Shown: positions 1,511 to 36,567 of the stretch, piece after piece
How the letters are laid out: each line of letters starts with the position of its first letter
Numbering within the stretch: position 1 is the stretch's first letter
Assembly: GCA_020137815.1 (NCBI GenBank)
Contig: CM035350.1
Coordinates: forward strand, 5,828,001-5,892,000
Length of the DNA stretch: 64,000 nt
Direction: 5' to 3'
Source: Hormiphora californensis
Taxonomy: Eukaryota; Animalia; Ctenophora
The notes under the pieces: generated by a model
The model's database searches: none
Told to the model about the DNA's origin: nothing
What the model saw: the letters and a program-made list of their open reading frames with translations, nothing else
Position numbers and translations under genes: made by a program

Positions 1511-4500
1511 CTCAAACTGGTATCTGCAAATGATGGTCCAGATGAGTCCGAGGGTGAGCTTATGGTTGCCCGACAAGATATCCTCATTACTGATATTCAC
1601 CAGCCGAACCTGAAAGGTGGTGCAAGGTGTTAGAAGTGGGCGTGAAACCTAGTGGATGGGTCAGTCAGGTAGAGTGAAAGTTGTTAGAGATAAGGAAAAC
1701 GGTCGGGTGGAATGAAAGTTGTTAAAGATAGAAAAAGGGAGGGAAATGCTTGCAATGGGGGGGGGGGGGGGGGGTGCTGAAACTGGGAAGATTGCACCTA
1801 CATAAATTCTCTGATTCTTGATCCAGGATAATGCGGTAACGAAATGGTCTTTAGTTGTTACAACGCCCGTCGATGTCTCCAATCTTTCGGTAATTTTAAA
1901 TGTTCTCCCTTTCCAAGAGGACCTTTTCAACCCATCATCTCCTGTTGTTGTGAACTCCATGGTAACGCCATGACTCCCAATCCTCCTCCTCTTACACTGA
2001 ACCTCCGGTCGTTCCAAGTAGATCCGTTTACAATTTTCCTCCTCTAACCGCGCCACTTTCTTGTTGTAGTGGATTGACGCGGCACACGGCTCAAACCTCC
2101 TCCGAAACATCCACTCGTACAGGGTGTCCACTGTGTCTGGGTTAGGGGTCTTCTTGTGAGACCCATGATGGACTCGTGTTGGAATATCGTCTATATGGAA
2201 CACGCTAGCCTCCTTTAACTTGTCAGGGGAGTTGAGTTGTTCACGAAGGAGCCGGTAGCAGGTTCTTTTACAGCGCCGAACCAGATCTGATTCAAATCTC
2301 TCCAGTTTACGGTGTAGACAAACCAGTTTGTTGATCAGCAGGGACCGGTCTTGGGGAACTACTGGTGATGGGGTTGTCATAGCAACAGGAAAACCATCTC
2401 CCCTAGCAACATGATCAGTACAAGGAAGGACAGGTGGTGTACGGCTGGTTTGCAAATAACTGGCATCTTGTGGTTTGTTTGTGTTGTACTCCGCAGCACA
2501 TTCGGCGTGTCTGTTATTGGCATCAATTTGATCTGCAGTAACTGTGCTGTTGCAGTCTCTAGAACTTTTAGTAGATGAATTGTGAAGGGATTCCGGGTTA
2601 GCAGTAGAAGGGTGAGCGGTTCTGGTAGTATGACGAAGAGAAGAAGAGGGATGGGTTTGAAGGGAGTCCAGAGTGGAAACTATCTCACTGCAAAGTAGAG
2701 TTATATCCTCTGCAGCTACCAGGTCCGGAGGAGTTGTACTAATGGCCGCTGTATCATTAAAACTGGGAAACACCTCCCCAGCTGGGGAGGGGAGAAAGCC
2801 TCCTGATCCCCGTGCTGCAAGATCATCCCTTATCTCCTCCATTGCCTCGGCCCGACCGAGGAGACCCCGGGTAAGGGCATCCCTGCTACGTCTCCGCTGC
2901 TCCGCTCCCGTATTAACACGCGACATCCAATCAAATAGCCGGGACAACATATTAGGAGGAAGTAGGAGGGTAGTAATACAAAGGGCGAGCGGATATGCGA
3001 TGTGCGTGTGCGTGTTCTCGCACACAAAGCAGCACAGAAAATCAGAGAGGAGAGAGTGCGGTTTCTGTTTTAAGTAAAGCACTCTATATGCTACAATTAT
3101 ATCCGGACAAGTAGACACAGGTCCGTTATTTTAGAACACGCCAACAGCACAGCCATGAGGAGTAAAGTATAGGATTCCGAGATCGAGTAGAAGTGCATCA
3201 TGTGTGTGTGTGTTGTGGGGAATTATAGAGGGAGAATGTTGAAAATGGTACACACACACAAGCACACAAGCACACACAAACACACGTCACTACTACACCC
3301 AGATTCTACACAACCAACTGATGTAGTGGCGTGGGAAGACATCAAGCTATACTACAAACCAAGCTAAAGGTCACCAACCACTATACTAGCTACAACCACT
3401 ATTATACTAGCTACAAACTATAACAGCCAGATTCAATATATTGCAGTGAGCAGCGGCCACTAGGTGTGAGTCGTCTACATGCTTTAGAGTTGAACTCTCT
3501 CTCAAATAGATATATTTGCATGGGGTAGAGAGGTCTTTATCACTTCCGCATTACGAGAGAGCACACACTCAGACAATATATATTGGGTTTGTAGACACAC
3601 AATGGACAGGAACCAGTTCTTTGAGACCCAAAACTGGCACAATTACGGACACTACCATGGGTGTGCAACTATAAACATGAGGAAAGCAACCAGGCACGTA
3701 CAAACAGTTCACACGTGTAATAACGGTAATGGAACTGGAAATAGCTCGATATAGAGCTGATAGATACAATGTGCGATACAGATATAGAGAGAGAGAGAGC
3801 AGGAGATTGCAGACAGTTCAATAGTTACACAGACAGGGAGCTGCGAAGGGAGGAGGAGGGAGAGCAGACAACATCGTTCAGAGAGGAGAATAAGAGTGTT
3901 AGATGTATTAAACACACTAACAGGTGTTACACTTAAGTATTTCTAGTTACAAAGCAGATTTGCACACAGCTGGAGATCATATCTAGCATCCTACGACAGG
4001 GCGTGCTGTAGTAATTGGGCTGGATTGAAAATACATGAGATGATCAATGTGATGCTATTTCTGGCCGCTACAATTCTCTGATCTCTCTCTCCTTTTCAAC
4101 TTTATAACACTTCATAGCTGCACAAATGATGTTATGTATGCAGACAGCTCTCTCTCTGTCTGGCTGTCACTCTCTTTGTTTCTCTCTCTCAGTTTCTCAT
4201 TTTGTTTCTCTCTCTCTTAGTTTCTCTAAGTGTCTCCCTCAAACCAATTGTTTACTATATGCTTCAATTGCTCGCATGGAAATTATACAGTGAAATTACA
4301 AAACAAGCTCTGTTGTAATAATAGCGGATAAAGCATGCTACAACAAACATCAAACTATTAACTCACTCTCTTAATTTCTTTATTTTCGATCTTTTAATTC
4401 TCTCTTTTCGATAACTCGTTCATTATCTCTCCCTCTCCTTCACTATCTCTCTCTATCTCTTTCAGTTCAGATGGTATAGAATAATGAGGGCAAGACTCCA

Positions 4501-5589
4501 GGAAGGAAAGATTAAGCACTGATAATAATCCTCTCTCGCCGATTATTCAAATAACTACTTTTTCAATACAGGATATAGACAACAGAACATGAGTGGTATA
4601 TGGTTCTGCAGTACAGAATAGGGCAAGATCTGAGCGGGACGAAGGCGCTAGACATACAGTACAAGTACACATGTACTAATTTACTGAACCATGTGGGTAG
4701 CTATATATAGTACTGAGTATAGAAGTGGACCCAAGATACAACTATTGTAGTTTACCCAGCTGGTACAACAAGATACAACTACATGTGTTAGTAAGGAGCC
4801 CTACACACACAGGCAGCTCTACAGTTAGAGTGTCAATAAAGATTGTATAGCATCCACCAGGTTTCTTGGCGGTAGTGTTCCAGGGAAATTCAATCACACC
4901 AGACGATGGAAAGGGGAATTGTAATTCGGGAGGGGGATTAGGGGAGTAACGTAGTAGTAGCAGGGTATACTGTATGTCTGTTGAATTATTCACACACAGA
5001 GTAGTGGCCGGTGGCCCTATAGAGATCTGTATCTTACCCCTTCTTTTTCAAGGAACCGCAATGCATATTCCAAATTCTGTAGTCTCTGTATGTTCAGCTT
5101 CACTCGAGTCGTCTTTTTCTAAAATAGGGAAATGTGGAATAGTAATGGAGCCTGAGTGTAGTGGTTTGGGGTAATCAGGACTTTTAAAATCTCATTACAA
5201 ATGTCATATATGTATGACTCAAATGCCATATTTGAGAGATTTCTACCTTGATTCTACACGTGCAATTAGTTAAACTTACAATTGGTTTCTTGGACAGGAA
5301 CTCCAAAAGGGCAATAAGTCGGAGACCATCCTTTAAATCCTCAAACAAATCCTCTATTTTATCAACATCGCCCTGTTGGAGGGAGGGGTATAATTGGTTG
5401 GCAATGGAGTTACAGTCGGACCCCGATTTACCGGGATGCTCGATCGGGGGAAAAGGTTTTGCCCTGTAAATCTGGGTCCGGTAAATCGAGGTCCGACTGT
5501 ATTATCAGGTTCCCACATGGTAGTAGGGCGGGAGGTTTTGTCATTTTTAATGAACCATGGTGGTTATTAATTGAGCTAACTAAATAGAG

Positions 5590-5624
<35 letters not shown>

Positions 5625-6133
5625 CCTCCATCGCTAATACCTGACCCCAGTCCCTGTAGAAATGGGGCTAATCTAATAAATATCCATGCGTGCCATACGC
5701 CAGTAAAATAAACTCAGCAATTTTTGAAAGCTTTTTCTCTCTGTACAATTTCATTCTCCTGTCACTCTCCAGTCTCTGTCCACAATGTATGTCTTTATAA
5801 TTTTCTTTGCACTCTCGGCATGGTGAAATCATTGGTAATACGGGTGAGAAAAGTGGTACTGGAGAGTTTTAAAACTGGGCTGACGAAAATTCAGATTTAC
5901 AGTTTAAAAGAAAACTGAATGCCCCTAACTAAAATGAATCTTTACTTCGACCTAACTATTTTTGACACAACTTAGCAAAGACCACCCCCTAAAACTGCAG
6001 ATTGAAGACATCAAATTGTATATCCTCAAAATTAAAAACCAAACCAATATATCGAGTAATCCAGCACTTACCCCTTTTAGTTGTACGTTGGCCCATCTGG
6101 TAAATGTCCTAGTCTGGATGTTATCTCTCTGCA
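1511..6133 (-). CDS. CH1 (calponin-homology) exons of a dystrophin/spectraplakin/nesprin-type actin-binding protein; the gene continues beyond the left edge
   Basis: GT-AG exons: 6133-6072 ([21 protein letters not shown]), 5372-5280 ([31 protein letters not shown]), 5118-5038 ([27 protein letters not shown]), 1609-1511 ([33 protein letters not shown]). They join in frame. Sizes 62/93/81/99 bp with a phase-1 first acceptor parallel dystrophin exons 2-5 (62/93/78/93). Confidence 0.92.
1802..2950 (-). CDS. Probable alternative large first exon (383 aa) splicing into the last CH1 exon
   Basis: Uninterrupted same-strand ORF inside the 5037-1610 intron, ATG at 2950 (MLSRLFDW...). Ends ...WIKNQRIY|GTAGGT, a phase-0 donor in frame with the phase-0 acceptor at 1609. 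Confidence 0.65.
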
Positions 6134-6773
6134 CTGTAAAACAGGGGAATTGTGTGAGTCACGTGTTGTGCAAAAACACCAGCCAATAAGAGAGCTGCTA
6201 CGAAAATAGACACACTCACAGAGAAACAGTAAATAACTTTGCATCGGAAGGGTGTTGCAAGGCACACATGAGAGTATGTGGGTTGTAAACTGTATGGAAC
6301 GTGCACATTGGACTGATAAATTTAGAATTCGGAACAGCCTTATTTTTGAAAATAACGACAAGTTTTGTGGTCGTACGAAGTTCACGCTAACCTGACATGA
6401 ATACATGTTAGTAATGTTTAGGCGTATACATTACCCAGCATTACTTACAGAAATTCAACCTGGACTTTTACAGAGAGGATAGTGGAGACAAGACTACCCG
6501 ACCGAAAATTGGAAAAAAGTTCCCAACCCCAGATAAACAAATCTATACCTTTATTGTTGTGACAAGATAATTAGTGAGAGGAATGGAAATTAGTTAACAG
6601 TGAAAGTGTTTGGACCTTGGGTTCAGAAGGAAAACCTTGAGGAACGGACAGTAAGCCGAAATTTCACCCCCTAAAATACTCTCACTCTTGGGGAAACCAG
6701 TATCACCTATATAACAACCTCTAGAGCTAGCTACCAGTTGACAGGGGATAACTATAATAACACACCTACATAC

Positions 6774-6831
6774 AAAGAAATCTGCTCCTCAGTCGGATCG
6801 ACCTCCTGCTCATGGGGGTCCTCCGGTGCAT
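6774..6831 (-). CDS. Candidate short alternative first exon (MHRRTPMSRRSIRLRSRFL)
   Basis: ATG-initiated frame ending in phase-1 donor T|GTATGT, compatible with the CH1 acceptor at 6133; could be chance. Confidence 0.3.
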
Positions 6832-7239
6832 GCATCACTTAACTGTCAAACTACGTACAGAAATGTCCCCCCCTGTCATACACCGCTCTACGCTAATTCA
6901 TGATAATTAGTATGTCCAATCCTATAGAGTTGGAGCCCCTACGTACTAAATTAAACTCAAGAACGTATATCATACACAGAGAGAGAATGCCCCTCCTAGC
7001 AAGCTGAAATTAACACACGTGCCCATCTAGTTTACACGTGTCTGACAGCTTTTGAAACAATCTAATTTTGATGTATTATACAGACTTTTGCATTCATTTT
7101 GGGATTTAGATTTTAGACCTGGAGTTACCGTTCCGAAGTTTCTAAATTTTCACACGGGCGCGGAATATGAAAAACGCTGGAGAGACGATGATGAAAATAA
7201 AACTCACGGATAACAAATGATAGTTCTTTTGGTACTCAC

Positions 7240-10003
7240 AGGCCTCCTGTTCGGCAGCGATTTGGAAGCTATTGCTCTGGAACTGTTCGTAGTCAGACTG
7301 GACAAGGGTGACAAGGATCTCTCCATTTGGTCCGTGGACAAAGGTATACTCGATATCATTGAGGGAACCATTGTTCTTCAACTGCTCAAACTGGTCCACC
7401 GACATGGTTAACACGTGGTCGTTATCTGGGGATGGGTGCAGTAGTTAAATAACCATGGAAACAGGAAATGAAACCATGGTAACATGCATACATACTTGAT
7501 GTGATGGTAACTTTGATGTCAGTTACAGATTCCTGGTCGGGTTGCGAGGCATTTGTCTGGAACATCTTGTACTCATCTGGGGAGAGGATCACCTTGTGAT
7601 CCCCATTATCCAGCTCATCAACTTGAAGGTTGAGACCCGCAAATGCGCCTTGGTTTCGCAGCGTCACCCACTGGGGGTTGGTCAGGACGAGGACATACTG
7701 CCCACCTGGAGGAGAGGTTGTGTGGGGGTGTGGTGGACCAAACAACAACTTGTGATAAATGTACTTACGGGCATCTACTTCAATGTTAATGTTGCTTATG
7801 TTTACAACGGTTGCTTTGGGCTTAGTGACTGTGTGTGCTCCGGCTTCGGAGGTGCTTTGGAGGAAGGTTGAGTAGTCTTGTTGGACTAGAATGACGATCA
7901 CAGACCCATCAGCCTGTTTCTGGACTTGCACGTTGGGTCCAGCGAATACCTCTAGCTTGCAGAGGTAGGCCCATTGGGGCGCAGAGAGGGTCAACTGGTA
8001 CCTGCCGGCTAAAAACGCTGCTTAGAACATGTAACTCAATCAAAACATATATAAACGTATAAACACGAAAAGGAATGTGCTGTTGGTGCTGAGATGTGTG
8101 ACTTATATCCCATTGGGGGGGGGGGGGGGTGTCGTACGAGATTTCAGCTGAGGACTTGATAGCATTCCAAGAGACATGCAGGAATCAGTGGGTTAGAAGC
8201 AATGTAATCCCGGGGGCTGATGTCTCTCTCTCTCTTACTTTCTGGGTTGATCTGAATGTTGTACTGACTCTCAATGCTTTCATGTGCAGCCTTGCCCTGG
8301 TTGCCATGTCGGGAGAGGAACACATTGTAGTCGTCCCGGGACATTTTGCAGATGTAACTATTCCCGGAATTGCTAACGTCCAAGGAGCTCAGATCCTTGA
8401 AGGAGCCAAGTCCATCCAGGACTTTATATTGGTCAGCACTCAGGGACAGCACGCACATACCACCTTGTGGAACACGTGTGTTTAGTACATGTTGTACCTA
8501 CTGTACAAATGTCAAGACTGTTTCGAGTAAGAACAACTTGTGCAGTTGTGCACTATTATATCCACCGGACTTACTCGCATCAACAGTCACAGAGAAGACA
8601 TCATCTGTTTTGGCTGGTATTCTTGATCGGTACGCCAGGAATTGCTCGTATTGGTTTTGGTCCAGAGTGACCTTGTACCCGCCGTTGGGCTCCACATCGG
8701 GACTCACATTGGACAGTCCACAGAACTTGCCCCCGTCCAGCATAGAGTCCCATAGCTCCGCAGTTAGGTGAATATTGTATCCACCTCCTTTAAAGGTTTG
8801 GATGTGGGAGTGATTTTAATGCTATATACGTCACAGAGCAACACTTGTTACAAAGAGCTACACAGTATTAGAACGAGCTACACTGTACTAGAACGAGCTA
8901 CACTTTAAGAAAGACTACATTTAATGTGTCACGTAACTCAAACACACAATATGATGTACTTACTGGCAGCAAGGGTGATGTTGTACTGCATGGTGGTCAT
9001 GGGTGGGGCCACGTGTCGATTCTTCAGATAGAGATCATACTGCTCCTGGGTCAACTTGATCACGTAGTTTCCATCTTGCATGAAGTAACTGACATCAATA
9101 CCAGCGAACACATTGTGCTTGTTCAGTTCTTCGAATTGTTCCACAGTTAGGACCAGGGAAAAGCCGGCTGAAATTAGGAACTATATTATAGGCTCATTCA
9201 TCAGTAAACACTGCAAAAAAACGATGAGACTTGACTGAGAGAGAGAGGGAGGAGAAAGATAGAGGAAGAAAGATAGAGAGAGAGATAGAGGGATAGAGAG
9301 AAAGAAAGAGGGGGGGGGGAGAAAGAGAGAGAAGGAAAGGAAGGGAGTGGGGTAGAAAAGAATAGTTAGCCTGTAGTTTATGTTATGCGACGGCTGTCAA
9401 CAAATTTTCCGATGGAAAGGGCGTGTGAGGAAACATAACTATTCAAGTTACTATGCAGGAAACATAACTATTCTGGCTCCCAAGATTAACAAATATGTAC
9501 ATAATTCTAACAAAATTATAGCTAGGATTATCAACAAGAAAACCACCAGCCATCCTAATTAATAATAACTTACCACTGTTCAGTTTGTATTTCTCGTAAT
9601 CTTCATCACTCATCTGGACCACATACGTGTCTCCCTCCATCATGTACTTGATCTTGAGGCCAGCAAACATCCTGTTCGCCTGATGGTCCTTCCATTCTGA
9701 CTCACTCAGTCGTAACACATACCCGGGGTTCTCTGAAGTTAACATGAGTCATGTAAAACAAGATCATTGGCTGTTTGGTTGTTTTAGGAATTAGTGTAAC
9801 TCCACTTCTCTTACCGCAGTTTTTCTTGTATTGTTCATACTGCTCGGCTGTCATATCTATATTGTACTTGTCACCCTCCATGGTGTAGCTTATCTGCATG
9901 TTGGCGAAGGCGCCCATTTGTTGGTTCTCCTTCCATTCCTTTTCGCTGAGCTCCAGAACGAAGGTCTTGGGAGCCGTTTCCATGTCGACATCCACTGCAA
10001 ACC
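7240..10003 (-). CDS. Eight symmetric phase 1-1 exons, each encoding one copy of an unrecognised ~55-aa repeat domain
   Basis: Exons 10003-9815, 9732-9574, 9167-8964, 8787-8575, 8463-8239, 8008-7769, 7705-7496, 7425-7240. All are AG/GT bounded with lengths divisible by 3 (189,159,204,213,225,240,210,186). Shared pattern (F/Y)xLxL(S/T)xx(Q/E)(W/F/Y)..F(A)G(L/I)...G.Y.(I/V).(L/M)(S/T)..(Q/D/E)Y..(F/Y). The last one joins the CH1 exon as EQEA-L-QRDN. Confidence 0.85.
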
Positions 10004-10340: not shown

Positions 10341-10394
<54 letters not shown>

Positions 10395-11214
10395 GAGAGA
10401 GATAGAGAGAGAGAGTGAGAGAGGGAGAGAGGGAGAGAGGAAGAGAGAAAGGGAGTGATACTCCAAATGCAGCTGTGGGTTGAGGGAATCCTGTCGACAC
10501 CTATCAGAAAGACCTTGCTGTGAGAGAGGGAGAGAAAAGAATGGCACTTGGAGTTGGGTAAAGAAAATTATGCGATAGAAAGAAAAGACTGAGAGAGTCG
10601 AGAAGTCGAACAAATGTTATGAGAGGCAGGCTAAAGGCTAGAATGACTTAGTCAGGAAATGTACAGGGTCGGCTTCAGGCCATGGCCAAGTGCTCCTGAA
10701 TGTCTCTCTTTCTAAATTCACGCTAACAGCTGAACTTTTCTTCTGTATTTCGAGGTTTCAAATCGAATTTGACACATGGTATACAGTGGTGTGGAGGTGT
10801 CAGTAAAAAGTTTACACAACCCTGTCCGCCTCATTGGTCACAGGCATGTTAATATACAGAGGAGAGAAAGCGATAGATGCAGGAGAGAAACTGGTAAAGC
10901 ATAAGATAGAGAGGTGGAAAGCTAGAGGGTTTAATTCAACAAAGCTGTGCTAAACTAAAAGCGCTGCCTCCTAATTTCTACCACCACACAACCATGTTCC
11001 CATGCAGCTCCAAGGTGGTACAATGTGAAACACGTCAAACTGAGAATATATTGGGCCACTCTAATTTTCTATTTATTAAATGTTAGCTGTAAGCTGTAAT
11101 TGCAGCTCTTTTGCACACTTATGAAATGCTCAAGAACTGCTGCCACTTCGTGGGAACTGGCTAGCTAAATCTGGCCCCCTCTTCACGGTTTAATTTTGGG
11201 CTGGTTTTACTTAC

Positions 11215-14657: not shown

Positions 14658-14694
<37 letters not shown>

Positions 14695-16222: not shown

Positions 16223-16258
<36 letters not shown>

Positions 16259-17928: not shown

Positions 17929-17975
<47 letters not shown>

Positions 17976-17990
17976 TCTCGCTCTCTCTCT

Positions 17991-18040
<50 letters not shown>

Positions 18041-18044
18041 CTCT

Positions 18045-20954: not shown

Positions 20955-23900
20955 CATCCTCCCCGTGGTCTACAAAGTCCCTCAAATCAACAGCTATCTC
21001 TACCAGCTCCCTCGGTGTTGAGGGTTGATCTTCCTCCGGCAGACAGCTTCCCTCCTCCACCAGGTTGATGCGGAGAGTAGCCGGTACAGGACTCTCCTCA
21101 GATGTCTTTAAGAGGGCGTTATGTTCCCGATGTGGAATGAGCTTATTAGCAAACAGTTGCCTCACCAGATCCTTCTTCACAGACCGGGGTAGATCCAACC
21201 GGACAATACCCTGTCTGATCTTATCAAACAGACTAGGACTCATCACAACAGTATCACGTGTCATCATGGTGTACCCATCATCATCTCCCCTTAGGGGAAC
21301 TGGAGTGACCCTCTTGTCAATATCCCCGATGTTAACACCCGGCATGTCCACCAGTTCAGGGGGAGAGATGGATCCTGCCTCCACCAACTCGTATCCCTCA
21401 TCATCGTCACCCAGTGGCACTGCTTTCACCTGTCTGGTGATGTGCTTGATGTTGATGGTCAGGTCAATGGGTGTCCCATCTGCCTTCTTAGCGGTGATAT
21501 TCAGCTCATCCCCCTCCAGTGTTTCCATCTTGTTGATCTCATCCTCCAGGATCTTCATAGTCTCCTCATCGACATTGCTCTCCCGGAGTGAGTCTATGAT
21601 CTGCTCCTTCATCTCGTCAGTAAGGGGCTCTTCAACCAGTTCGTATCCTTCTTCAGGCTCCATGGGGACGGACACAATGTTCTTGGTTATGTTCTTGATG
21701 TTGATGGTAAGATCTACCGGTGTTCCGTCCTTCTTAGAGGCAGTCAGCTTCACCTGATTCCCATCTACATTCTCGAGCTTGTCCACCTCCTCAAGTAGAA
21801 GTTCTATTGTCTCAGGGTCCAGTTTTGAGTTCTTTAGCGTCATTGTGATCTGGTCCTTCACCACATTCACTGAAGGTGCTTTGGATGTTTGAGGAGCCTG
21901 AGCGGGCTCTACCAGCTCAAACCCATCCTCAATGTCACCCAAGGAAACAGGGTTAATGTTTTTGGTGATATCATGGGTCTCTATATTCAGCTCAATGCTC
22001 TGGGAGGGTTTCTTTACATCAGGGACGGTTAGGAGCCGATCAAGACCCGCTGGAGCAGCTGATGGACTTTTGAGGGGAGATTTGAAGACAGGTGACAGAG
22101 GGATAACTTTAACGGGAGGAACTTCATCAAACACCATTTCGTATCCAGTATCCTCTTCTAACGGGACAGATTTGATATTTTTGGTGATGTTTTTGATGTT
22201 GATGGTCAGATTGATTGGAGTTCCATCCTTCTTCTTGGCATGTAGAGACATGGAATCACCCTGGACCTTGTCCAACTTATCGATCTCATCTTCCAACAAC
22301 GACACTGTCTCCTTGTCCAGGTTGCAACCCTTCAGGGACTCCTTCAGCTGCTCTTTCATCTCCTCAGTCACCGGCTCACACACCAGCTCGTAGCCGGAAT
22401 CTGTTTCCATGGGAACCGGGACAATGTTTTTACCAATCACATCTATTGGTAGGTCGGCAGGTGTTGCTTCAGTGGTCGGCTTCTCAGAAGATTTCAACTC
22501 AGGGACACCTTCATCTGCAGAGGGCTGTACAGGAGCTGATTCTGTAGTTGGCTTTTCGGCAATCTCTAGAACTGGAACCTCAAGATCTTCTGTAGCAACC
22601 GGAATGAGATCAATCGACTCAGGTTTAGGTTGTCCAGGAGTCTTAGTTGTGATTGTTTCTGTAACATTTTTGGTGATGTTTTTGATGTTGATGGTCAGGT
22701 TGATTGGAGTTCCATCCTTCTTCTTGGCATGTAGAGACATGGAATCACCCTGGACCTTGTCCAACTTATCGATCTCATCTTCCAACAACGACACCTGTCT
22801 CTTTGTCCAGGTTGCAACCCTTCAGGGACTCCTTCAGCTGCTCTTTCATCTCCTCAGTCACCGGCTCACACACCAGCTCGTAGCCGGAATCTGCTTCCAT
22901 GGGAACCGGGACAATGGTTTTACCAATCACATCCATTGGTAGGTCGGCAGGTGCTGCTTCAGTGGTCGGCTTCTCAGAAGATTTCAACTCAGGAACGCCT
23001 TCATCTGCAGAGGGTTGTACAGGAGCTGATTCTGTGGTTGGCTTTTCAGCAATCTCTAGAACTGGAACCTCAAGATCTTCTGTAGCAACCGGAATGACAT
23101 CAATCGACTCTGGTTTAGGTTGTCCAGGAGTCTTAGTTGTGATTGTCTCTGCAACATTTTTGGTGATGTTTTTGATGTTGATGGTCAGGTTGATTGGAGT
23201 TCCATCCTTCTTCTTGGCACGTAGAGACATGGAATCACCCTGGACCTTGTCCAACTTATCGATCTCATCTTCCAACAACGACACTGTCTCCTTGTCCAGG
23301 TTGCAACCCTTCAGGGACTCCTTCAGCTGCTCTTTCATCTCCTCAGTCACCGGCTCACACACCAGCTCGTAGCCGGAATCTGTTTCCATGGGAACCGGGA
23401 CAATGTTTTTACCAATCACATCCATTGGTAGGTCGGCAGGTGCTGCTTCAGTGGTCGGCTTCTCAGAAGATTTCAACTCAGGAACGCCTTCATCTGCAGA
23501 GGGCTGTACAGGAGCTGATTCTGTAGTTGGCTTTTCAGCAATCTCTAGAACTGGAACCTCAAGATCTTGCGTAACAACCGGAATGAGATCAATCGACTCT
23601 GGTTTAGGTTGTCCAGGAGTCTTAGTTGTGATTGTTTCTGTAACATTTTTGGTGATGTTTTTGATGTTGATGGTCAGATTGATTGGAGTTCCATCCTTCT
23701 TCTTGGCATGTAGACACATGGAATCACCCTGGACCTTGTCCAACTTATCGATCTCATCTTCCAACAACGACACTGTCTCTTTGTCCAGGTTACAACCCTT
23801 CAGGGACTCCTTCAGCTGCTCTTTCATCTCCTCAGTCACCGGCTCACACACCAGCTCGTAGCCGGAATCTGTTTCCATGGGAACCGGGACAATGTTTTTA

Positions 23901-26900
23901 CCAATCACATCCATTGGCAGGTCGGCAGGTGCTGCTTCAGTGGTCGGCTTCTCAGAAGATTTCAACTCAGGAACGCCTTCATCTGCTGAGGGCTGTACAG
24001 GAGCTGATTCTGTAGTTGGCTTTTCAGCAATCTCTAGAACTGGAACCTCAAGATCTTGCGTAACAACCGGAATGAGATCAATCGACTCTGGTTTAGGTTG
24101 TCCAGGAGTCTTAGTTGTGATTGTTTCTGTAACATTTTTGGTGATGTTTTTGATGTTGATGGTCAGGTTGATTGGAGTTCCATCCTTCTTCTTGGCATGT
24201 AGAGACATGGAATCACCCTGGACCTTGTCTAACTTATCGATCTCATCTTCCAACAACGACACTGCCTCTTTGTCCAGGTTGCAACCCTTCAGGGACTCCT
24301 TCAGCTGCTCTTTCATCTCCTCAGTCACCGGCTCACACACCAGCTCGTAGCCAGAATCTGTTTCCATGGGAACCGGGACAATGTTTTTACCAATCACATC
24401 CATTGGTAGGTCGGCAGGTGCTGCTTCAGTGGTCGGCTTCTCAGAAGATTTCAACTCAGGAACGCCTTCATCTGTAGAGGGATGTACAGGAGCTGATTCT
24501 GTGGTTGGCTTTTCAGCAATCTCTAGAACTGGAACCTCAAGATCTTGCTGTAGCAACCGGAATGAGATCAATAGGAACAGGCTCAGAAGGAGTGGACTGA
24601 AATAATGGATCCTGTGGACCCTCCCGCTGCTCTATATTGACATTCCTCAGAATATTCTGGATGTTTATTGTGAGGTTAACTGGGCTGCCGTCTGGTTTCA
24701 TCGCCGAGAGGGTAAGTTGATCTCCCTCGATACTGTCAACTTTGTCCAACTCCAGCTTCAGTAGATCCCTCGTCTCGTTATCTAGCCCTGAGTTTTCAAG
24801 AGAGTGCAGTATCTTTTCCTTGATGGCAGAAACCGGTGGGGCCGGTCCTGTTGTAGCAGGTGAAGTTGGGGCCAGGAGGACCGCCATATTTCCGACTTCT
24901 TCCACAGGAGAAGATTCCTTCTCTGGATTTTCCTCTTCGTGGGTTTCACGGTGGTAGAAAATGTGCTTGAGGTTGATTGTGAGTTCAATCGGAGTGCCGT
25001 CAGCCTTCTTAGATGTCAGTGTAACATGACCCATCATCAATGTTAGACAGATTGTCTATTTCTTTCGTTAAGAAGAGCTATTGTTTCACTGTCAAGGTCA
25101 CTTCCCTCCAGCGAGTTCAACAGCTGTGATCTGATGTCTTCACTTACTGGAACTGACTTGGGCGGCTCCTTCTCTCCTTCAGGAGTAGATCTGGAAATTC
25201 GAATGTCCTCCAGATGAGCAACAGTTGTAGAAGACTCTTCCTTAGTAACAGGTACATTTTCAGTCACAACAGGGGGCTCTTCCTTAGCAACAGGTGCATC
25301 TTCAGTCACAACAGGGGCCTCTTCCTTAGCAACTGGTGCATCCTCTGTCACAACAGGAGACTCTTCCTTAGCAACAGGTTCATCTTCAGTCACAACAGGA
25401 GGCTCTTCCTTAGCAACAGGTGCATCTTCAGTCACAACAGGAGGCTCTTCCTTAGCAACAGGTGCAACTTCAGTCACAATAGGGGCCTCTTCCTTAGCAA
25501 CAGGTACATCTTCAGTCACAACAGGAGGCTTTTCCTTAGCAACAGGTGCATCTTCAGTCACAACAGGGGCCTCTTCCTTAGCAACAGGTGCATCTTCAGT
25601 CGCAACAGGAGGCTCTTCCTTAGCAACAGGTGCATCTTCAGTCACAACAGGAGGTTCTTCCTTAGCAACAGGTACATCTTCAGTCACAACAGGAGATTCT
25701 TTCTTAGCAACAGGTGCATCTTCAGTCACAACAGGAGGCTCTTCGTTAGCAACAGGTGCATCTTCAGTCACAACAGGGGGCTCTTCCTTAGCAACAGGTA
25801 CATCTTCAGTCACAACAGGAGACTCTTCCTTAGCAACAGGTGCATCTTCAGTCACAACAGGAGACTCTTCCTTAGCAACAGGTGCATCTTCAGTCACAAC
25901 AGGGGGCTCTTCCTTAGCAACAGGTACATCTTCAGTCACAACAGGGGGCTCTTCCTTAGCAACAGGTATATCTTCAGTCACAACAGGAGGCTCTTCCTTA
26001 GCAACAGGTGCATCTTCAGTCACAACAGCAGGCTTTTCCTTAGCAACAGGTACATCTTCAGTCACAACAGGAGACTCTTCCTTAGCAACAGGTGCATCTT
26101 CAGTCACAACAGGAGACTCTTCCTTAGCAACAGGTACATCCTCTGTAACAGCTACCTTTTCAGGTTCTTTAGAAACTGGTTTGGAATCTGGGGCTTTGGC
26201 AGCCTCAGGGGCTTCAGTCGCCTGGAGACAAGGAACTCCTTCTTCAGTCGGTTGATCAAACACAATAGGAATATCTGAAATGAGCTGCTGAGATTTAGGC
26301 TCGGGTTCAGGTTCAGGCTCAGATTTCTTTTCCACATTCACGGTCACGTTTTCAACAATGTTCTCAATGTTGATAGTCAGGTTGACAGGTGACCCGTCTG
26401 ACTTGGTGGCTGACAAAGTGATCTGATTGTCTGTCACAGTTGTCTCCTTCCTCACCTCCTTCATCAGAAGAACCTTGGCTTCCTTGTCCAGAGGTGAGGA
26501 TTTAATGATGGCGATAATTTGCTCCTTCATCTCGGGTGTCAAGGGAACGGGAGAACTCAACGGAGTGGGCTCTGGAGTCTCTTCAGGAGTCTTCGACTCG
26601 GATGTCTTTGTTTTTCTACTCGGCCTCTCCGGTTTCTTTGGAGGTTCTTCAGCGTCCTTGTTTTCTGCTTGAGATTCGGGAGCATTAGTCTTTTTACGAC
26701 TAGGCCTCTCGGGTTTAGGCTCCGATTCAATGAGAGGCTTATCTTTAGGAACCTCGGAATCAATCTTATCAACAGTGGTCGATTCTTTGGTATCCGGTTC
26801 AGATTGTATTTCAGCAGTATCAGGACTCACCAGTTCTTTAGATTCTGGTTTAGTATCTGGGGCTTCAGCGGCCACGGGAGCTTCTGAAGCTTCTAAACAA

Positions 26901-29900
26901 GGAATACCCTCTTCAGTCGGCTGATCCTTTGAAGCAGGAACGTCTTCAGACACAACAAGTTCAGGTTCAGTCTCAGATTTCTTCTCTACATTTACAGTCA
27001 CATTTTCAACAATGTTCTCAATGTTGATAGTCAGGTTGACAGGTGACCCGTCTGACTTGGTGGCTGACAAAGTGATCTGATTGTCTGTCACAGTTGTCTC
27101 CTTCCTCACCTCCTTCATCAGAAGAACCTTGGCTTCCTTGTCCAGATCAGAGGTCTTTAGGATGGCGATAATTTGCTCCTTCATCTCGGGTGTCAAGGGA
27201 ACGGGAGAACTCGACGGAATGGGCTCTGGAGTCTCTTCAGGAGTCTTCGACTCGGATGTCTTGGTTTTTCTACTCGGCCTCTCCGGTTTCTTTGGAGGTT
27301 CAACAGCGTCCTTATCTTCTACTGGAGATTCAGGAGCACCAGCCTTTTTACGACTAGGCCTCTCGGGTTTAGGCTCCGACTCAGTAGGAGGGAAATCTTT
27401 GACTTTTTCCTTGGTATCTGGCTCCTTTGAATCTGGTCCGGAAACTGGAGCATTCGCTGCAGCAGGAGCCTCAGATATATCGATGCTAGGAACGTCTTGT
27501 TCAGTTGGCTTTTCTTTTGGGAGAGACACATCTTTAGCCATTCTTGGTTCAAGTTTGTCAGGAGCCTCGGCCGCCACGGGAGCTTCAGAGGCCTTTATAC
27601 AGGGAACACTTTCTTCTGTTGGTTGCTCTTTAACAGGAGGACTATCCTCTGTCACAACAGGGGGTTCTTCTGTGTTCTCCGCTTTGCAAGGTTTCTTGGA
27701 ATCAGGTTCACTAACTGGCAGTTCCGCCGCCACGGGAGCTTCTGAAGCTTCCAGACAGGGAATACCCTCATCAGTTGGCGTGTTTTTGACGGGAGGAACT
27801 TCTTCAGAAACTACTGGCTGAGATTCTTTTAGTTGAGGTTCTTTATCCACTGGGACCTCTTCAGAAACAGACATGGGCTGATCTTCAGACGGCTCAGGCT
27901 TAGAAACCGGAGCACTTTCTGTGATTTCTTTCGGTGGAGCTTCGACTGCATCAGGTACTTCTAAGGGAACGGGAGAACTCGACGGAGTTGGCTCTGGAGG
28001 CTGCTTCTGGTCCTCAGAAGTTGGAGCTTCTGCAGCAACCGGGGCTTCGCTCGGTAGAACACATGGTACTCCTTCATCAACTGGTTTTGCTTCAGGAGCA
28101 TCTTCGGCAACAGGCTTCTCAGGCTTTGAATCCGGAGTCTTGGCAGCCACGGGAGCATCAGAGGCCTTTAGGGAAGGAAGATCCGCCTCAGTTGGCTGCT
28201 CTGTCACAGGAGGGACATCTTCTGTAACAATCGGCTCAGATTTCGGCTCAGATTTCTTCTCCACTTTCACAGTCACATTTTCAACAATGTTCCCAATGTT
28301 GATAGTCAGGTTGACAGGTGACCCATCTGACTTGGTGGCTGACAAAGTGATCTGATTGTCTGTCACAGTTGTCCCCTTCCTCACCTCCTTCATCAGAAGA
28401 ACCTTGGCTTCCTTGTCCAGATCAGATGTCTTTAGGATGGCGATAATTTGCTCCTTCATCTCGGGTGTCAAGGGAACGGGAGAACTCGACGGAGTGGGTT
28501 CTGGAGTCTGCTTTTTGTCATCGGAAGTTGGAGCTTCTGCAGCAACCGGGGCTTCGCTCGGTAGAACAAAGGGTACTCCTTCATCAACTGGTTTTACTTC
28601 AGGAGCATCTTCGGTAACAGGCTTCTCAGGCTCCTTTGAGTCTGGTTTTTGAAGAGGGAGGGGAGATCCCGGTTTTAAATCCGGCGTCTCAGCCGCCACA
28701 GGAGCATTAGAGGCCTTTAGGGAAGGAAGATCCGCCTCAGTTGGCTGCTCTGTCACAGGAGGGACATCTTCTGTAACAATCGGTTCAGATTTCGGCTCAG
28801 ATTTCTTTTCCACATTCACGGTCACATTTTCAACAATGTTCTCAATGTTGATAGTCAGGTTGACAGGTGACCCATCTGACTTGGTGGCTGACAAAGTGAT
28901 CTGATTGTCTGTCACAGTTGTCGCCTTCCTCACCTCCTTCATCAGAAGAACCTTGGCTTCCTTGTCCAGATCAGATGTCTTTAGGATGGCGATAATTTGC
29001 TCCTTCATCTCAGGTGTCAAGGGAACCGGAGAACTCGACGGAGTAGGCGCTGTAGTCTGCTTCTTGTCATCAGAAGTTGGAGCTTCTGCAGCAACCGGGG
29101 CTTCGCTCGGTAGAACACATGGTACTACTTCATCAGCTGGTTTTACTTCAGGAGCATCTTCGGCAACAGGCTTCTCAGGCTCCTTTGAGTCCGGTGTCTC
29201 AGCCGCCACAGGAGCTCCAGAAGCCTTTAGGGAAGGAAGATCCGCCTCAATTGGCTGCTCTGTCACAGGAGGGACATCTTCTGTAACAATCGGTTCAGAT
29301 TTCGGCTCAGATTTCTTTTCCACATTCACGGTCACATTTTCAACAATGTTCTCAATGTTGATAGTCAGGTTGACAGGTGACCCATCTGACTTGGTGGCTG
29401 ATAAAGTGATCTGATTGTCTGTCACAGTTATCTCCTTCCTCACCTCCTTCATCAGAAGAACCTTGGCTTCCTTGTCCAGATCAGAGGTCTTTAGGATGGC
29501 GATAATTTGCTCCTTCATTTCGGGTGTCAAGGGAACGGGAGAACTCGACGGAGTGGGCTCTGGAGTCTGCTTCTTGTCATCAGAAGGCTTAGCAACATCG
29601 CTGATGGAATCTGGCTTAGCTTCGGGGGCTGAAACAGGCTTCACAGGATCTGCTACAGGCGACTGTTTCCCAGCTTCAATCGGCTTAGTTTTCTCTGGCG
29701 CTTTCTGAGAAGGTGGTGCTTCAGAAGCCTTGACACAGGGGACGCCTTCTTCATTTGGCTGCTCTTTGACAGGAGGAACATCTTCAGTTACGACAGGGGG
29801 TTCTTCTGTGTCGCCAGATTGAGAGGGTTCATCAGATTTCTTAGAATCGGGTTCAATAACTGGCAGTTCCGCCGCCACGGGAGCTTCTGAAGCTTCCAGA

Positions 29901-32900
29901 AGAGGGATATTATCCTCTGTTGGCTGGTCCTTTGTTGGAGGAACGTTCTCAGTCACAATCGGCTGAGGTTTGGATTCCGAATCTTTTTCGCCTGTTACTG
30001 TCACATTCTGAACTAGGTTCTTAACATCAACAGTCAGGTTGACAGGTGACCCATCCGATTTTGTAGCTGACAAAACCACCTGGTAGTCTGAAATTTCTGT
30101 CTCCTTCCTCACCTCCTTCATTAGAAGAACCTTGGCTTCCTTGTCCAGAGGTGAGGTTTTAATGATGGCGATAATTTGCTCCTTCATCTCGGGTGTCAAG
30201 GGAACCGGAGAACTCGACGGAGTGGGCTCTGGCGTCTGCTTCTTGTCATCAGAAGTTGGAGCTTCAGCAGCAACCGGGGCTTCGCTCGGTAGAACGAAGG
30301 GTACTCCTTCATCAACTGGTTTTACTTCAGGAGCGTCTTCGGAAACAGGTTTCTCGGGCTTTGAGTCCGGAGTCTTGGCCGCCACGGGAGCTTCAGAAGC
30401 CTTTAGAGAAGGAAGATCCACCTCAGTTGGCTGCTCTGTCACGGGAGGGACATCTTCTGCAACAATCGGTTCAGATTTCTTTTCCACATTCACGGTCACA
30501 TTTTCAACAATGTTCTCAATGTTGATAGTCAGGTTGACAGGTGACCCATCTGACTTGGTGGCTGACAAAGTGATCTGATTGTCTGTCACAGTTGTCTCCT
30601 TCCTCACCTCCTTCATCAGAAGAACCTTGGCTTCCTTGTCCAGATCAGATGTCTTTAGGATGGCGATAATTTGCTCCTTCATCTCGGGTGTCAAGGGAAC
30701 GGGAGAACTCGACGGAGTGGGCTCTGGAGTCTGCTTCTTGTCATCAGAAGTTGGAGCTTCTGCAGCAACCGGAGCTTCGCTCGGTAGAACGAAGTGTACT
30801 CCTTCATCAACTGGTTTTACTTCAGGAGCATCAACAACAAGAACTGGATTCTTAGGTTTACCAGAAACTGTCCACATCTTGTTCTACCACGGTTTTTGGT
30901 TTCTTCCCCTCCGGTAGACCCACTGAAACCTCAGCAGAAAGCTGTCTTCTTGTCAGAACTATCACAGTTGATGGTTAGGTTTACAGGACTGCCATCCTTC
31001 TTGGTGGTTTCCAAGGTAACAGAGTCCTCAGTCAGGTCAGTTAGAGTACCAATCTGGATAGCGAGAAGGTCCTTGGTTTCCTTGTCCAAGTTATCCATGT
31101 TCTGAACCAGTTCAACCAACCGAATTTTCGTCTCCTCAGTAGCATCTGGTTTTTCAGGCTCTTTTGAGTCTGGTTTGTGAACAGGAATGGAAGATTTCGG
31201 CTTAGAATCTGGCGTCTCAGCCGCCACAGGAGCTTCAGAGGCCTTTAGGGAAGGAAGATCTACCTCTGTTGGCTGCTCTTTCACAGAAGGAACATCTTCG
31301 ATAACAATCGGCTCAGATTTCGGCTCAGATTTTTTCTCCACATTCACGGTCACGTTTTCAACAATGTTCTCAATGTTGATAGTCAGGTTGACAGGTGACC
31401 CATCTGACTTGGTGGCTGACAAAGTGATCTGATTGTCTGTCACAGTTGTCTCCTTCCTCACCTCCTTCATCAGAAGAACCTTGGCTTCCTTGTCCAGAGG
31501 TGAGGTTTTAATGATGGCGATAATTTGATCCTTCATCTCGGGTGTCAAGGGAACGGGAGAACTCGACGGAGTGGGCTCTGGAGTCTGCTTCTTGTCATCA
31601 GAAGTTGGAGCTTCTGCAGCAACCGGGGCTTCGCTCGGTAGAACAAAGGGTACTCCTTCATCAACTGGTTTTACTTCAGGAGCATCAACAACAAGAACTG
31701 GATTCTTAGGTTTACCAGAAACTGTCACATCTTGTTCCACCACGGTTTTTGGTTTCTTCCCCTCCGGTTGACCAACTGAAACCTCAGCAGAAAGCTGTCT
31801 TTTGTCAGAACTATCACAGTTGATGGTTAGGTTTACAGGACTGCCATCCTTCTTGGTGGTTTCCAAGGTAACAGAGTCCTCGGTCAGGTCAGTTAGAGTT
31901 CCAATCTGGATAGCGAGAAGGTCCTTGGTTTCCTTGTCCAAGTTATCCATGTTCTGAACCAGTTCAACCAACCGAATTTTCGTCTCCTCAGTAGGAGGTT
32001 TCTGAGGCTCTTTTGAGTCTGGTATGTGAACAGGATCAGGCTTCTCAGGCTTTGAATCCGGAGTCTCACCCGCCACGGGAGCTTCAGAAGCCTTTAGAGA
32101 AGGAAGATCCACCTCAGTTGGCTGTTCTGTCACGGGAATGACATCTTCTGTAACTGTAAACTGTGGTTGTTTCGGCTCTATTTTCACGGTCACATTTTCA
32201 ACAATGTTCCCAATGTTGATAGTCAAGTTAACAGGTGACCCATCTGACTTGGTGGCCGACAAAGTGATCTGATTGTCTGTCACAGTTGTCTCCTTCCTCA
32301 CCTCCTTCATCAGAAGAACCTTGGCTTCCCTGTCCAGAGGTGAGGTTTTAATGATGGCGATAATTTGCTCCTTCATCTCAGGTGTCAAGGGAACGGGAGA
32401 ACTCGACTGAGTGGGCTCTGGAGTCTGCTTCTTGTCATCAGAAGTTGGAGCTTCTGCAGCAACCGGGGCTTCGCTCGGTAGAACGAAGTGTACTCCTTCA
32501 TCAACTGGTTTTGCTTCAGGAGCATCAACAACAAGAACCGGCTTCTTAGGTTTACCAGAAACTGCCACATCTTGTTCCACCACGGTTTTTGGTTTCTTCC
32601 CCTCCGGTTGACCAACTGAAACCTCAGCAGAAAGCTGTCTTTTGTCAGAACTATCACAGTTGATGGTTAGGTTTACAGGACTGCCATCCTTCTTGGTGGT
32701 TTCCAAGGTAACAGAGTCCTCGGTCAGGTCAGTTAGAGTTCCAATCTGGATAGCGAGAAGGTCCTTGGTTTCCTTGTCCAAGTTATCCATGTTCTGAACC
32801 AGTTCAACCAACCGAATTTTCGTCTCCTCAGTAGGAGGTTTCTGAGGCTCTTTTGAGTCTGGTATGTGAACAGGATCAGGCTTCTCAGGCTTTGAATCCG

Positions 32901-35900
32901 GAGTCTCACCCGCCACGGGAGCTTCAGAAGCCTTTAGAGAAGGAAGATCCACCTCAGTTGGCTGTTCTGTCACGGGAATGACATCTTCTGTAACTGTAAA
33001 CTGTGGTTGTTTCGGCTCTATTTTCACGGTCACATTTTCAACAATGTTCCCAATGTTGATAGTCAAGTTAACAGGTGACCCATCTGACTTGGTGGCCGAC
33101 AAAGTGATCTGATTGTCTGTCACAGTTGTCTCCTTCCTCACCTCCTTCATCAGAAGAACCTTGGCTTCCCTGTCCAGAGGTGAGGTTTTAATGATGGTGA
33201 TAATTTGCTCCTTCATCTCAGGTGTCAAGGGAACGGGAGAACTCGACTGAGTGGGCTCTGGAGTCTGCTTCTTGTCATCAGAAGTTGGAGCTTCTGCAGC
33301 AACCGGGGCTTCGCTCGGTAGAACGAAGTGTACTCCTTCATCAACTGGTTTTGCTTCAGGAGCATCAACAACAAGAACCGGCTTCTTAGGTTTACCAGAA
33401 ACTGCCACATCTTGTTCTACCACGGTTTTTGGTTTCTTCCCCTCCGGTTGACCAACTGAAACCTCAGCAGAAACCTGTCTTTTGTCAGAACTATCACAGT
33501 TGATGGTTAGGTTTACAGGACTACCATCCTTCTTGGTGGTTTCCAAGGTAACAGAGTCCTCGGTCAGGTCAGTTAGAGTACCAATCTGGATAGCGAGAAG
33601 GTCCTTGGTTTCCTTGTCCAAGTTATCCATGTTCTGAACCAGTTCAACCAACCGAATTTTCGTCTCCTCAGTAGCATCTGGTTTCTTCGAACTTGTCTTA
33701 CAATCAGGAGCATCGGCCGCCACAGGAGCCTCAGAGGCTACAACGGAGGGAACTTCTCCTTCAGTCATCTTCACAACCGGGGCAGGGGCTTCAAACACTC
33801 CCAATTTTCTCTCCCTGCGGTTTGGTGCAACATCAACACTTTGATCTACAACCTTCTTTTTCTTAGGCTGATCAGGGTTGACAGAAACATCAGCAGTCAT
33901 CGAGAGCTTCTCTTTACCCGGAACATCCACAGTCACATGGGTATTGAGGAACTGACAATTGATATTCATTTTCACAGGTGTACCATCAGCCTTCTCTGTT
34001 TCCAATGTCACCGTATCTCCGGTCATGTGAGTCAGGGAGGCGATCTGACAAGTTAGGAGATCTTTTGTTTCCTTATCCATCTTATCATTATTGTTGATGA
34101 CACCCACCAGCTGCTCCTTCATCTCTGGGGTGAGGACCCTCTGTTCTCCGTCAACTGACATTTCGGGAGACAGTGCAAGTTCCGGGAAGGGGCTGGCGGT
34201 GCTGCTAAATGAAGACCTACTAAATGAACCTCTACTGCTGCTCCCAGTGAGAGAGCTGTTTGTTATCTCAACCCTGTATTCCCGGGGTCTCTCCCCAACC
34301 GTAAACACGACATCACCATCTTCCATTACGTAGGCTCTGTCCAGTAGAGATTGAATGACCTGAACCTGTTCCATCTTGATAAGTTCAGAGGAAGAGAGAT
34401 TGTTGATCACCTTCACCTTTAACTCATCTTCAGGAATGATTGGAACGCGGGAATCTTCCTTGGGGAGACCGAAAGAGAACTTGATGGGGATGTTCTGGAA
34501 CGAAACTTCAATCTTGACCGAGTCACGCTGTTTAATATAATCGCCCGAATAAAACTTCTCTATCAATAATTTCTTCTTTTCTGCGGTGAATTTGGATTGT
34601 CCAATGGCTTCAGTTCCCACGATCATCACCTTAATTGGCACGAACTTGCTCTTAGCACGACAATCCTTGTAGTTGACCTTCACATCGGTGATTCTGTAAT
34701 CAAGCCCGTACTTGATGTCTAGTACCACGTTGTTTCCCATTACAGTGATGGTATTGTTCTCTAACTTGAAGTTGTTGTCCACCAGCTTGCTAATCAGGGT
34801 TATCTTGGCAGTGTCGTCCAGGGCCAACATGGTGACTACCTTGATAATGGAGTGCTTCAGTCGGAGCATGGAGGGGGTCAGGGGACTTTGATCATACACA
34901 TCCTCTTCGTGGATTGTCATGGCCTCAATGGACGCTTGGAATGCCTTGTCCTGAGGTTTGGACTTGTCATCCAGGATCTTTACATTGAAACTATCCGATG
35001 AGGTGATGGAACCCCTGCTGTCCCTTCGCAGTCCTTCGAGGATAATCTTGCTCCCCTCACGGCGGAACCGGCCGTTCTTGACAGCCCTCACTGCCTGTTT
35101 CCGGTACTCCTGGTTGATGGTTCCCTTCTGGATCTCCGCAATAACGAAATCCTTCACCTGTTCTTCACACATGTCCTCGGGGACGTAGAAGTACGGTGTT
35201 GCAATCTTATCCGATCCAGCAGCATCCAATGCGGATGTATCTACATCGAAATTTAACTCCTCTCTGGTGTCTCCCTCTTTGACAAGGACGGACAGTCGAC
35301 GTCCCTCTAAACGGTAGTTATTGTTGTAGATGGAGGACAGGATAGAGTTTCTTCGGCCGGCGTTCATTTTCTTGTTAGCTGTGAAGCCATCGATCATTTC
35401 GATGAGACTGGCAGTACCAATGTTCGTCTCTCTCTGTATTATTTGTGGGTAAAGTACCCCGGGGAGGTTGAGAGTGATGTTTTGGGTTGTTTTTCCAGAT
35501 TTCATGGTGATGGTGACCTTGTGTAGACCCACATCACAGTTGTCTTCCTGAATAGCCTGGTGAAGACGATCTTTCACGGAGTCAGGGAACTTCAGCCGTC
35601 CTATTGCCTGCTGGATAAACTGTTTCGTGGAGTTGTGGAGCACTTTTGGGTTTTCAGGATCCTTGCCGGGTAGTGTAAACTTCGCCTGGAGATCTGGGCC
35701 AGCATAAATCACCAGGTTGAGGTCTTTACAAGTGAAACTCTCGTGCTCAATTGCCTCGATCAACAAATCTTTCTGAACTTCAGAAATTTTAGTATGACTT
35801 TTCACAAACTCCTTCACACGGTCGATCCTCGCTCGAAGTGAAGCTAAGTCTTTCACAGCACCCTTGAACCCGCTCTTTTTGAGGGCAGCAAACTTGGAAC

Positions 35901-36567
35901 CAGCTCCTAGCTTACCGCCGAATTTCCTATTTTTGGGCGGGCTACTCGGGGGCGTTTTTTGTTTCCCAAACTTCCGTCCTCCAGGAGGACTAGATTTGGG
36001 ACTTTTTCTTACTGGAATACCGGTCGATGATCCACGACCAGATTTCGGTGATCCAGCGGGGGATGTTTTTGGGGAGGGAATCTTCCGGACATGTCCTTTC
36101 GGACTAACAACTTTTGGGACAACAGTGACAGTAGTCCGGGTGGAAGTTCTCACCGTCGCCTCTGCAACAATTGTTTTTGGATATCTTGGTGCTGATCTTC
36201 TCACCTCAATTGGGGAGACTTGTTTCGGTTCGGGCGCTGCTTTTGGAGAAGAAGGAGTTTTCTTTGGGTTGACGGGAGATGGGGTGGATACCGGGCTGAA
36301 CCTATTACTGGTACCGAATGTTGAATGTCCGAATTTAGAGAACCTGTCAGTAGAGGCGGTGCTGCTTGAAGACGGGGAGGATTCGGGAGAGAACTTGTTA
36401 GCGAGAGAGCCGATCCGGGAAGGTTGTTTCTCCCAGGGCTTCCTGACAGGCTTCTCTTCGGTATCTGCTTTTTTCTGCCACGAATCAACTAGCCTATTTT
36501 TGGGGGCACCTACGCTACCCTTGCCTGCAAGCGTAACTCCGCGCCTAGGATTATTATTATCAGACAT
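20955..36567 (-). CDS. Giant (~15.6 kb) intronless exon encoding ~5200 aa of repeat modules and PEVK-like linkers; probable N-terminal extension of the CH-domain gene
   Basis: ORFs 30931..36651, 25043..30877, 24537..25040, 22775..24571 and 20851..22794 continue the same protein repeats. Breaks are 1-bp insertions relative to sister repeat copies. Starts cataaag|ATG TCT GAT (36567) and ends GAG GAT G|gtgagt (20955, phase 1). Confidence 0.85.
22170..24570 (-). repeat. 489-bp coding tandem repeat (~5 near-identical copies, 163 aa)
   Basis: Equivalent positions at 22899, 23388, 23877, 24366 (period 489). Confidence 0.93.
25230..26150 (-). repeat. 42-bp coding minisatellite (~22 x VVTEDAPVAKEEPP), PEVK-like
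   Basis: 14-aa repeat visible in ORF 25043..30877. Confidence 0.95.
31400..33670 (-). repeat. 840-bp coding tandem repeat (~2.7 near-identical copies, 280 aa)
   Basis: Equivalent positions at 31571, 32411, 33251 (period 840). Confidence 0.93.

Follow-up and report, generated by a model that had tools for sequence, protein, structure and literature searches.

The tandem-CH domain forms the N-terminal end of plectin, dystrophin, nesprin and the spectraplakins, whose alternative leaders are short and whose giant exons belong to the rod; the alternative first exons of plectin join at the start of the type-1 CH domain (CH1). Spectraplakin CH domains are generally N-terminal (PMC9145010), and alternative lead sequences arise from several promoters, some being joined to a partial actin-binding domain (ABD) (bioRxiv 10.1101/122010; PMC4914211). 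MACF1-4 carries N-terminal plectin repeats in place of the ABD (PMC4914211), the giant repeat exon of Drosophila shot (10,497 nt) encodes plakin repeats that follow the ABD and precede the spectrin repeats (PMC2173965), the alternative N-termini of plectin measure 5-180 residues (PMC2064082), and nesprin-1/Msp300 combines N-terminal tandem CH domains with giant isoforms and several start exons (PMC8616381); dystrophin has been reported absent from ctenophores (PMC4582122, PMC10293626). Here we analyze a 64,000-nt stretch of the ctenophore Hormiphora californensis (assembly GCA_020137815.1, contig CM035350.1, positions 5,828,001 to 5,892,000; referred to below as the window). We judge it rather probable that its minus strand carries the 5' portion of a gene for an actin-binding cytoskeletal linker, in which a 15.6-kb repeat exon, the most upstream coding exon, is joined to CH1 through a 618-nt exon and a series of eight small exons. 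The resulting giant isoform would have about 5,950 residues before the ABD, and these would form a giant alternative leader on a multi-promoter gene.

The exon chain and its CH1 domain

Each exon was translated separately, and splice sites were scored with donor and acceptor models trained on the window's own exons, the 13 training donors reaching 8.0-12.2 bits, values inflated by self-training. The 618-nt exon and the eight small exons (Table 1) have AG/GT ends, are free of stops and are all phase 1-1 (206 + 542 residues), and the four CH1 exons continue the chain in frame with a phase-1 entry at 6133; the chain given in the initial annotation thus holds for these exons. The giant exon likewise ends as had been claimed, its last open reading frame (ORF) meeting GTGAGT at 20955 in phase 1. 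The acceptors at 11832, 10003 and 6133 share phase 1, so that the giant exon stays in frame with CH1 whichever of them it is joined to. The 20955 donor would join 11832, or skip to 10003 or 6133 (5,200-5,750 residues).

The database matches identify a type-1 CH domain of the plectin/MACF1/dystrophin type. Pfam CH matched two exons, each under the whole-domain cut-off, and the PDB matches were to the ABDs of plectin, MACF1, dystrophin and spectrin, with E about 1e-8 for exon 4. Bit scores summed over three CH1 exons, the remaining fourth being weak, were 72.3 for plectin, 70.5 for MACF1, 68.8 for dystrophin, 63.7 for beta-III spectrin and 57.7 for filamin B. For exon 2 taken singly the best score was that of filamin, for exon 4 that of plastin-3 by virtue of two matched stretches, and no nesprin chain occurred in the PDB match lists for the CH1 exons. 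Plectin, MACF1 and dystrophin are not separated by these scores, and CH2 and the rod, which would fix the family, lie outside the window together with any plakin domain, EF-hands, GAS2, WW-EF-ZZ or KASH region, so that the earlier label "dystrophin/spectraplakin-like" fits CH1 only. Exons 2-5 of DMD measure 62/93/78/93, which the 62/93/81/99 found here resemble; a literature look-up gave no confirmation of the DMD sizes. The 1.5 kb remaining in the window past CH1 exon 4 is mostly an inverted-repeat element (window 110-1420; 617 nt, 99% complementary, 77-nt spacer) that looks like a miniature inverted-repeat transposable element or foldback element.

The 618-nt exon contains six W-K/R motifs and three LK[KS][TA] motifs, which are LKKT-like (Pfam gave no support), and has an ATG at its third base. 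Its acceptor is strong (13.1 bits, self-trained) and matches the 20955 donor in phase. This exon may also serve as the first coding exon of an isoform of its own. Two further ORFs are candidate leaders. The one at 2950-1802 matches CH1 exon 4 in phase and would join only the end of CH1 through a weak donor; it is possibly a partial-ABD leader, recalling the partial-ABD isoforms of spectraplakins, or else a nested gene. The other, at 6835-6766, is a possible short first exon for CH1, and both candidates would fit a multi-promoter gene.

Two repeat modules and the frame of the giant exon

The giant exon begins with about 250 basic residues (net charge +39), followed by a globular-looking stretch that by eye may contain diverged modules and gave one weak match (E 0.086). 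It then encodes 24 copies of a module of about 70 residues, module A (26 of 29 hidden Markov model matches at E<0.01; two copies are split by frame breaks), connected by acidic linkers. P, E, V and K together make up 42% of the residues overall and 64% in the best 250-residue block. AlphaFold predicts two helices and a hairpin for module A (predicted local distance difference test [pLDDT], 76), and the best structural match, an Hsp70 subdomain (Z 5.9, root mean square deviation [rmsd] 3.0, 65 aligned), is within the noise of common arrangements. A profile search with module A confirmed one of 7,989 candidate proteins, P0095, a relative's protein with 70% identity to the giant exon over 230 residues, linkers included; none of 7,995 candidates was confirmed as a homologue of the giant-exon 3' end. 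Module A has no convincing Pfam family. For the giant ORFs, Pfam listed RNA_pol_Rpb1_6, SpoVG and Paramyx_P_V_C; although the first two pass the cut-offs, we rejected all three as sums of weak matches over the repeats. Plectin repeats gave no match at E<=1 in the four of five giant-exon ORFs scanned (the unscanned 172-codon ORF holds module A too), and Pfam found no Ig or FN3 in the giant-exon ORFs, modules A and B both being predicted to be alpha/beta.

Module B, of about 50 residues, is encoded once in each of the eight small exons. Its predicted fold is strand-helix-strand-strand-helix (AlphaFold, pLDDT 83), and hhalign finds it unrelated to module A (probability 0.3%). Its best structural match, ACT/ferredoxin-like (Z 5.2, rmsd 3.0, 65 aligned), is again within common-arrangement noise, Foldseek returned no match at E<=0.001, and Pfam offered no convincing family; for both modules, the absence of a structural match is no proof of a new fold. 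Among 1.84 billion proteins, the module B profile matched 91, of which 83 align to a window exon by BLAST, 33 of them at >=50% (50-96% identity) and together covering all eight exons. In 28 of these 33 matches the protein ends in the read-through that a phase-1 donor would produce (background, 2.7%). The first small exon is internal, because one relative keeps residues upstream of its Met. Matches to different small exons lie on contigs of equal size (71,250, 4,836, 107,356 and 559,983 nt, in four relatives' assemblies), which suggests that the same array exists elsewhere with its linkage conserved. Searches with the first small exon among proteins of 110-2000 residues confirmed none of six candidates, and metagenome scans with two small-exon alignments confirmed none of 505 and none of 586 pattern matches.

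Arrays of module B also occur in other proteins of relatives (P0003, P0004, P0008 and P0006). The C-termini of P0004 and P0008 carry repeated VGKL motifs plus another motif, which we take to resemble a capping-protein-interaction motif, with no Pfam match. The relatives that were looked up bore no informative names. Long profile matches in P0002 (named as a PEGA-domain protein), P0024, P0039, P0060, P0062, P0064 and P0066 were treated as false positives on inspection. Module B seems to be a cytoskeletal domain family specific to one lineage. The initial annotation had proposed an elastic or scaffolding isoform, and a PEVK-rich repeat scaffold is supported indirectly; it did not recognise that two folded domains are arrayed in these exons, one in the giant exon and the other in the small ones.

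The giant exon had been described as a single open frame, which is not so in the assembly, where 36567-20955 falls into five ORFs. Alignment to sister repeat copies places extra single bases at about 30949, 30873, 24547 and 22795, while the break near 25060-25035 splits a module A copy without a near-identical sister. We read the breaks as most likely assembly errors, because each of the four that could be resolved is a one-base insertion within near-identical repeats, no break falls in the unique sequence at either end (first 2.9 kb, last 1.2 kb), and the ratio of nonsynonymous to synonymous changes (pN/pS) among young module A copies (n = 10) is 0.30, a value indicating that the repeats are under purifying selection. 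In addition, no in-frame stop has been made by substitution across 15 kb, and P0095 is open across the repeat unit that contains break 1. The same observations bear on the reading that the breaks are real, the exon decaying or yielding a truncated product of about 1,880 residues in this individual, and no giant isoform. This would agree with the five ORFs as assembled and with a break 2 in a copy lacking a near-identical sister, but it fits poorly with single extra bases in near-identical copies, intact unique ends, missing substitution stops and a pN/pS of about 0.3, and we consider it improbable. Micro-introns at the breaks were ruled out, single-base differences accounting for four of them.

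Since the net frame shift of all breaks is 0 modulo 3, the raw length still gave phase 1 at the donor. If the extra bases are errors, the giant exon encodes about 5,202 residues, with about 5,950 up to CH1. The exon probably starts at the acceptor at 36613, 46 nt upstream of the ATG; this acceptor is weak (3.9 bits), and the 5' coding change point (36607) falls at it. At both large exons an acceptor closely precedes the first ATG, by 46 nt (36613) and 2 nt (11832), a layout as expected of untranslated first exons or of spliced-leader trans-splicing.

Probable onward splicing of the giant exon

Computed from codon usage, the cumulative coding signal reaches its maximum at 20950, within 5 nt of the 20955 donor. 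Over the 33 codons past this donor the score is -16.7 bits, lower than in every one of the 69 held-out coding windows (minimum, -10.5) and usual for non-coding sequence, in which 83 of 369 windows reach equally low values; the next stop in the giant-exon frame lies at 20851. Because the coding signal ends at the donor and not at the stop 35 codons on, the giant exon is likely spliced onward. Were the giant ORF instead a separate upstream gene or transcript ending at stop 20851, or in a short terminal exon of the 9.1-kb interval, the CH gene would start at the ATG of the 618-nt exon and its extension would reach about 750 residues only. The place where the coding signal stops argues against such a transcript, as do the strength and matching phase of the 618-nt exon acceptor and the lack of any poly(A) hexamer (AATAAA/ATTAAA) downstream of the giant exon until 18669, i.e., within 2.2 kb. 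It draws support from the 618-nt exon ATG at the third base, with N-terminus-like sequence, from a 20955 donor that is only moderately strong, from the ability of short exons to escape the codon scan and from the fact that no junction was seen; on balance we regard it as unlikely. From the giant exon to 11832 the codon scan detected nothing coding-like at >=11 bits, and upstream of the giant exon it detected only transposon-like, low-complexity or short unassigned segments.

Several observations weigh against splicing of the giant exon onto CH1. As assembled, its five ORFs measure 1907, 1946, 172, 618 and 656 codons. The 20955 donor, at 6.8 bits, is below all 13 training donors; its score is equalled or exceeded at 64 minus-strand sites of the window and exceeded at 8 sites within the exon. 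Short exons escape the codon scan, which did not detect even the CH exons. None of the predicted junctions (20955>11832, 11215>10003 and 7240>6133) was seen in a transcript, and homologue and profile searches found no database protein in which a CH domain is joined to module B, the 618-nt exon or the giant exon; module B arrays are also present in proteins that end without a CH domain (P0003, P0004 and P0008). In RNA runs X1 and X2, in which 10700-12800 was examined, the 618-nt exon had no contig, a result that counts neither for nor against splicing; a single 151-nt piece from X1 fell in the upstream intron, X2 yielded a repeat match of 35 nt, and the share of giant-exon words was 0.13 in X1 and 0.00 in X2. 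The elasticity of the arm, which we consider probable, and its actin binding are predicted properties. Finally, at 16640-16500 the 9.1-kb intron contains noisy homopolymer sequence, maybe an assembly patch.

This patch consists of long homopolymers of all four bases (G, C, A and T) and resembles low-quality sequence patched into the assembly. Together with the long microsatellites of the connecting intron and the indel errors of the assembly, it raises the question of a misjoin that brought two unrelated loci together, the giant exon then belonging to another gene. Such a patch could, however, be a local gap fill that needs no misjoin, and the giant exon and the 618-nt exon are on the same strand, match in phase 1 and have W-K motifs in common in their N-terminal regions, which leaves a misjoin very improbable. 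For the spliced chain into CH1, as put forward by the initial annotation and favored here, the support is indirect and comes from phase-1 exon ends kept in relatives, from a coding change point that lies within 5 nt of the 20955 donor and from the purifying selection acting on the repeats.

Table 1. Coordinates of the exons, frame breaks, repeats and candidate leaders in the window
Feature	Position	Strand	Description
Giant exon	20955..36613	-	15,659 nt as assembled; first ATG 36567; based on ORFs, modules, change points, donor and relative P0095
Frame break 1	30873..30949	-	Two single extra bases vs sister repeat copy
Frame break 2	25035..25065	-	Inside module A copy; net +2 or -1; by eye two extra bases
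Frame break 3	24547	-	One extra base vs sister 489-bp repeat copy
Frame break 4	22795	-	One extra base vs sister 489-bp repeat copy
42-bp x 21.6 tandem repeat	25235..26140	-	14-residue P/E/V/K/A/D/T unit, PEVK-like segment
489-bp x 4.9 tandem repeat	22177..24572	-	One module A plus linker per unit
618-nt exon	11832-11215	-	Phase 1-1, 206 residues, low complexity
Small-exon array	7240..10003	-	1,626 nt, 542 residues, one module B per exon
Small exons 1-8	10003-9815, 9732-9574, 9167-8964, 8787-8575, 8463-8239, 8008-7769, 7705-7496, 7425-7240	-	
CH1 exon 1	6072..6133	-	62 nt, phase 1 in
CH1 exon 2	5280..5372	-	93 nt
CH1 exon 3	5038..5118	-	81 nt; weak structure-database match only
CH1 exon 4	1511..1609	-	99 nt; gene runs on beyond window
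Candidate short first exon	6766..6835	-	23 residues, acidic, Met start after acceptor at 6842; weak phase-1 donor
Candidate alternative leader	1802..2950	-	383-residue ORF in last CH1 intron; donor 1.0 bit, phase 0; intermediate codon score

Elsewhere, the window contains an 875-codon gag-protease ORF of a long terminal repeat retrotransposon, with zinc knuckle and aspartyl protease (56980-59607, minus strand), a fragment of a reverse-transcriptase ORF like that of long interspersed nuclear elements (60101-61363, plus strand), and coding-like, frame-shifted K/S/E-rich segments of a gene or transposon (62738-63478, minus strand). A degenerate telomere-like hexamer run lies at 46467-46524, and 53-bp, 24-bp and 16/32-bp minisatellites lie at 46910-47427, 19342-19819 and 52829-53442, respectively.

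The predicted giant isoform among cytoskeletal linkers

Transcription from the most upstream start would place the ABD mid-chain, about 6,000 residues from the N-terminus, while shorter isoforms would start at the 618-nt exon or further downstream. Extra filament anchors would come from the basic head at the N-terminus and from the LKKT-like motifs encoded by the 618-nt exon, and between anchors the folded modules and acidic PEVK-like linkers would form an extensible beads-on-a-spring tether. The length of this tether would be set by promoter choice, by analogy with plectin and the spectraplakins, in which the choice of leader determines targeting.

The spectraplakins (Shot, MACF1 and dystonin) resemble this gene in CH1 type and, in shot, in a giant repeat exon, and their several leaders may have counterparts in the candidate leaders described above, but the repeats found here precede CH1 and have no convincing Pfam family, whereas those of Shot follow the ABD and those of MACF1-4 replace it. 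Plectin has the highest summed CH1 score, yet its leaders of 5-180 residues compare with a predicted 5,200-5,950 here. Dystrophin and utrophin share the CH1 similarity, and the literature searched gave no giant leader for them. In nesprin-1/Msp300 isoforms the CH domains are N-terminal, whereas in the isoform predicted here they would be mid-chain. The PEVK springs of titin and Sallimus are similar in having long acidic P/E/V/K-rich segments between small folded repeats; they differ in that module A is a predicted helix-helix-hairpin and not Ig or FN3 and in that the modules here are probably attached to a CH-domain linker gene, spring-like behavior being a prediction. For a giant leader before a tandem-CH domain, no report was found in the literature searched, whose coverage was partial and without supplements.

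Modules A and B are two small domains open to expression, structure solution and pulling. The eight-domain extension encoded by the small exons is kept across several relatives and would be unusual even if the giant exon were separate. We give even chances to the broader proposal that a marine-animal lineage built a titin-like spring from scratch, by placing about 6,000 residues, made up of two new repeat domains with PEVK-like linkers and drawn mostly from one 15.6-kb first exon, before the ABD of a spectraplakin/dystrophin-type linker, with the ABD mid-chain and a total mass that, with the unseen rod, could reach or exceed 1 MDa. If true, the leader would be 30 times longer than the longest of plectin and made from two undescribed domains, and it would show that giant elastic proteins of the cytoskeleton can arise by a new route.

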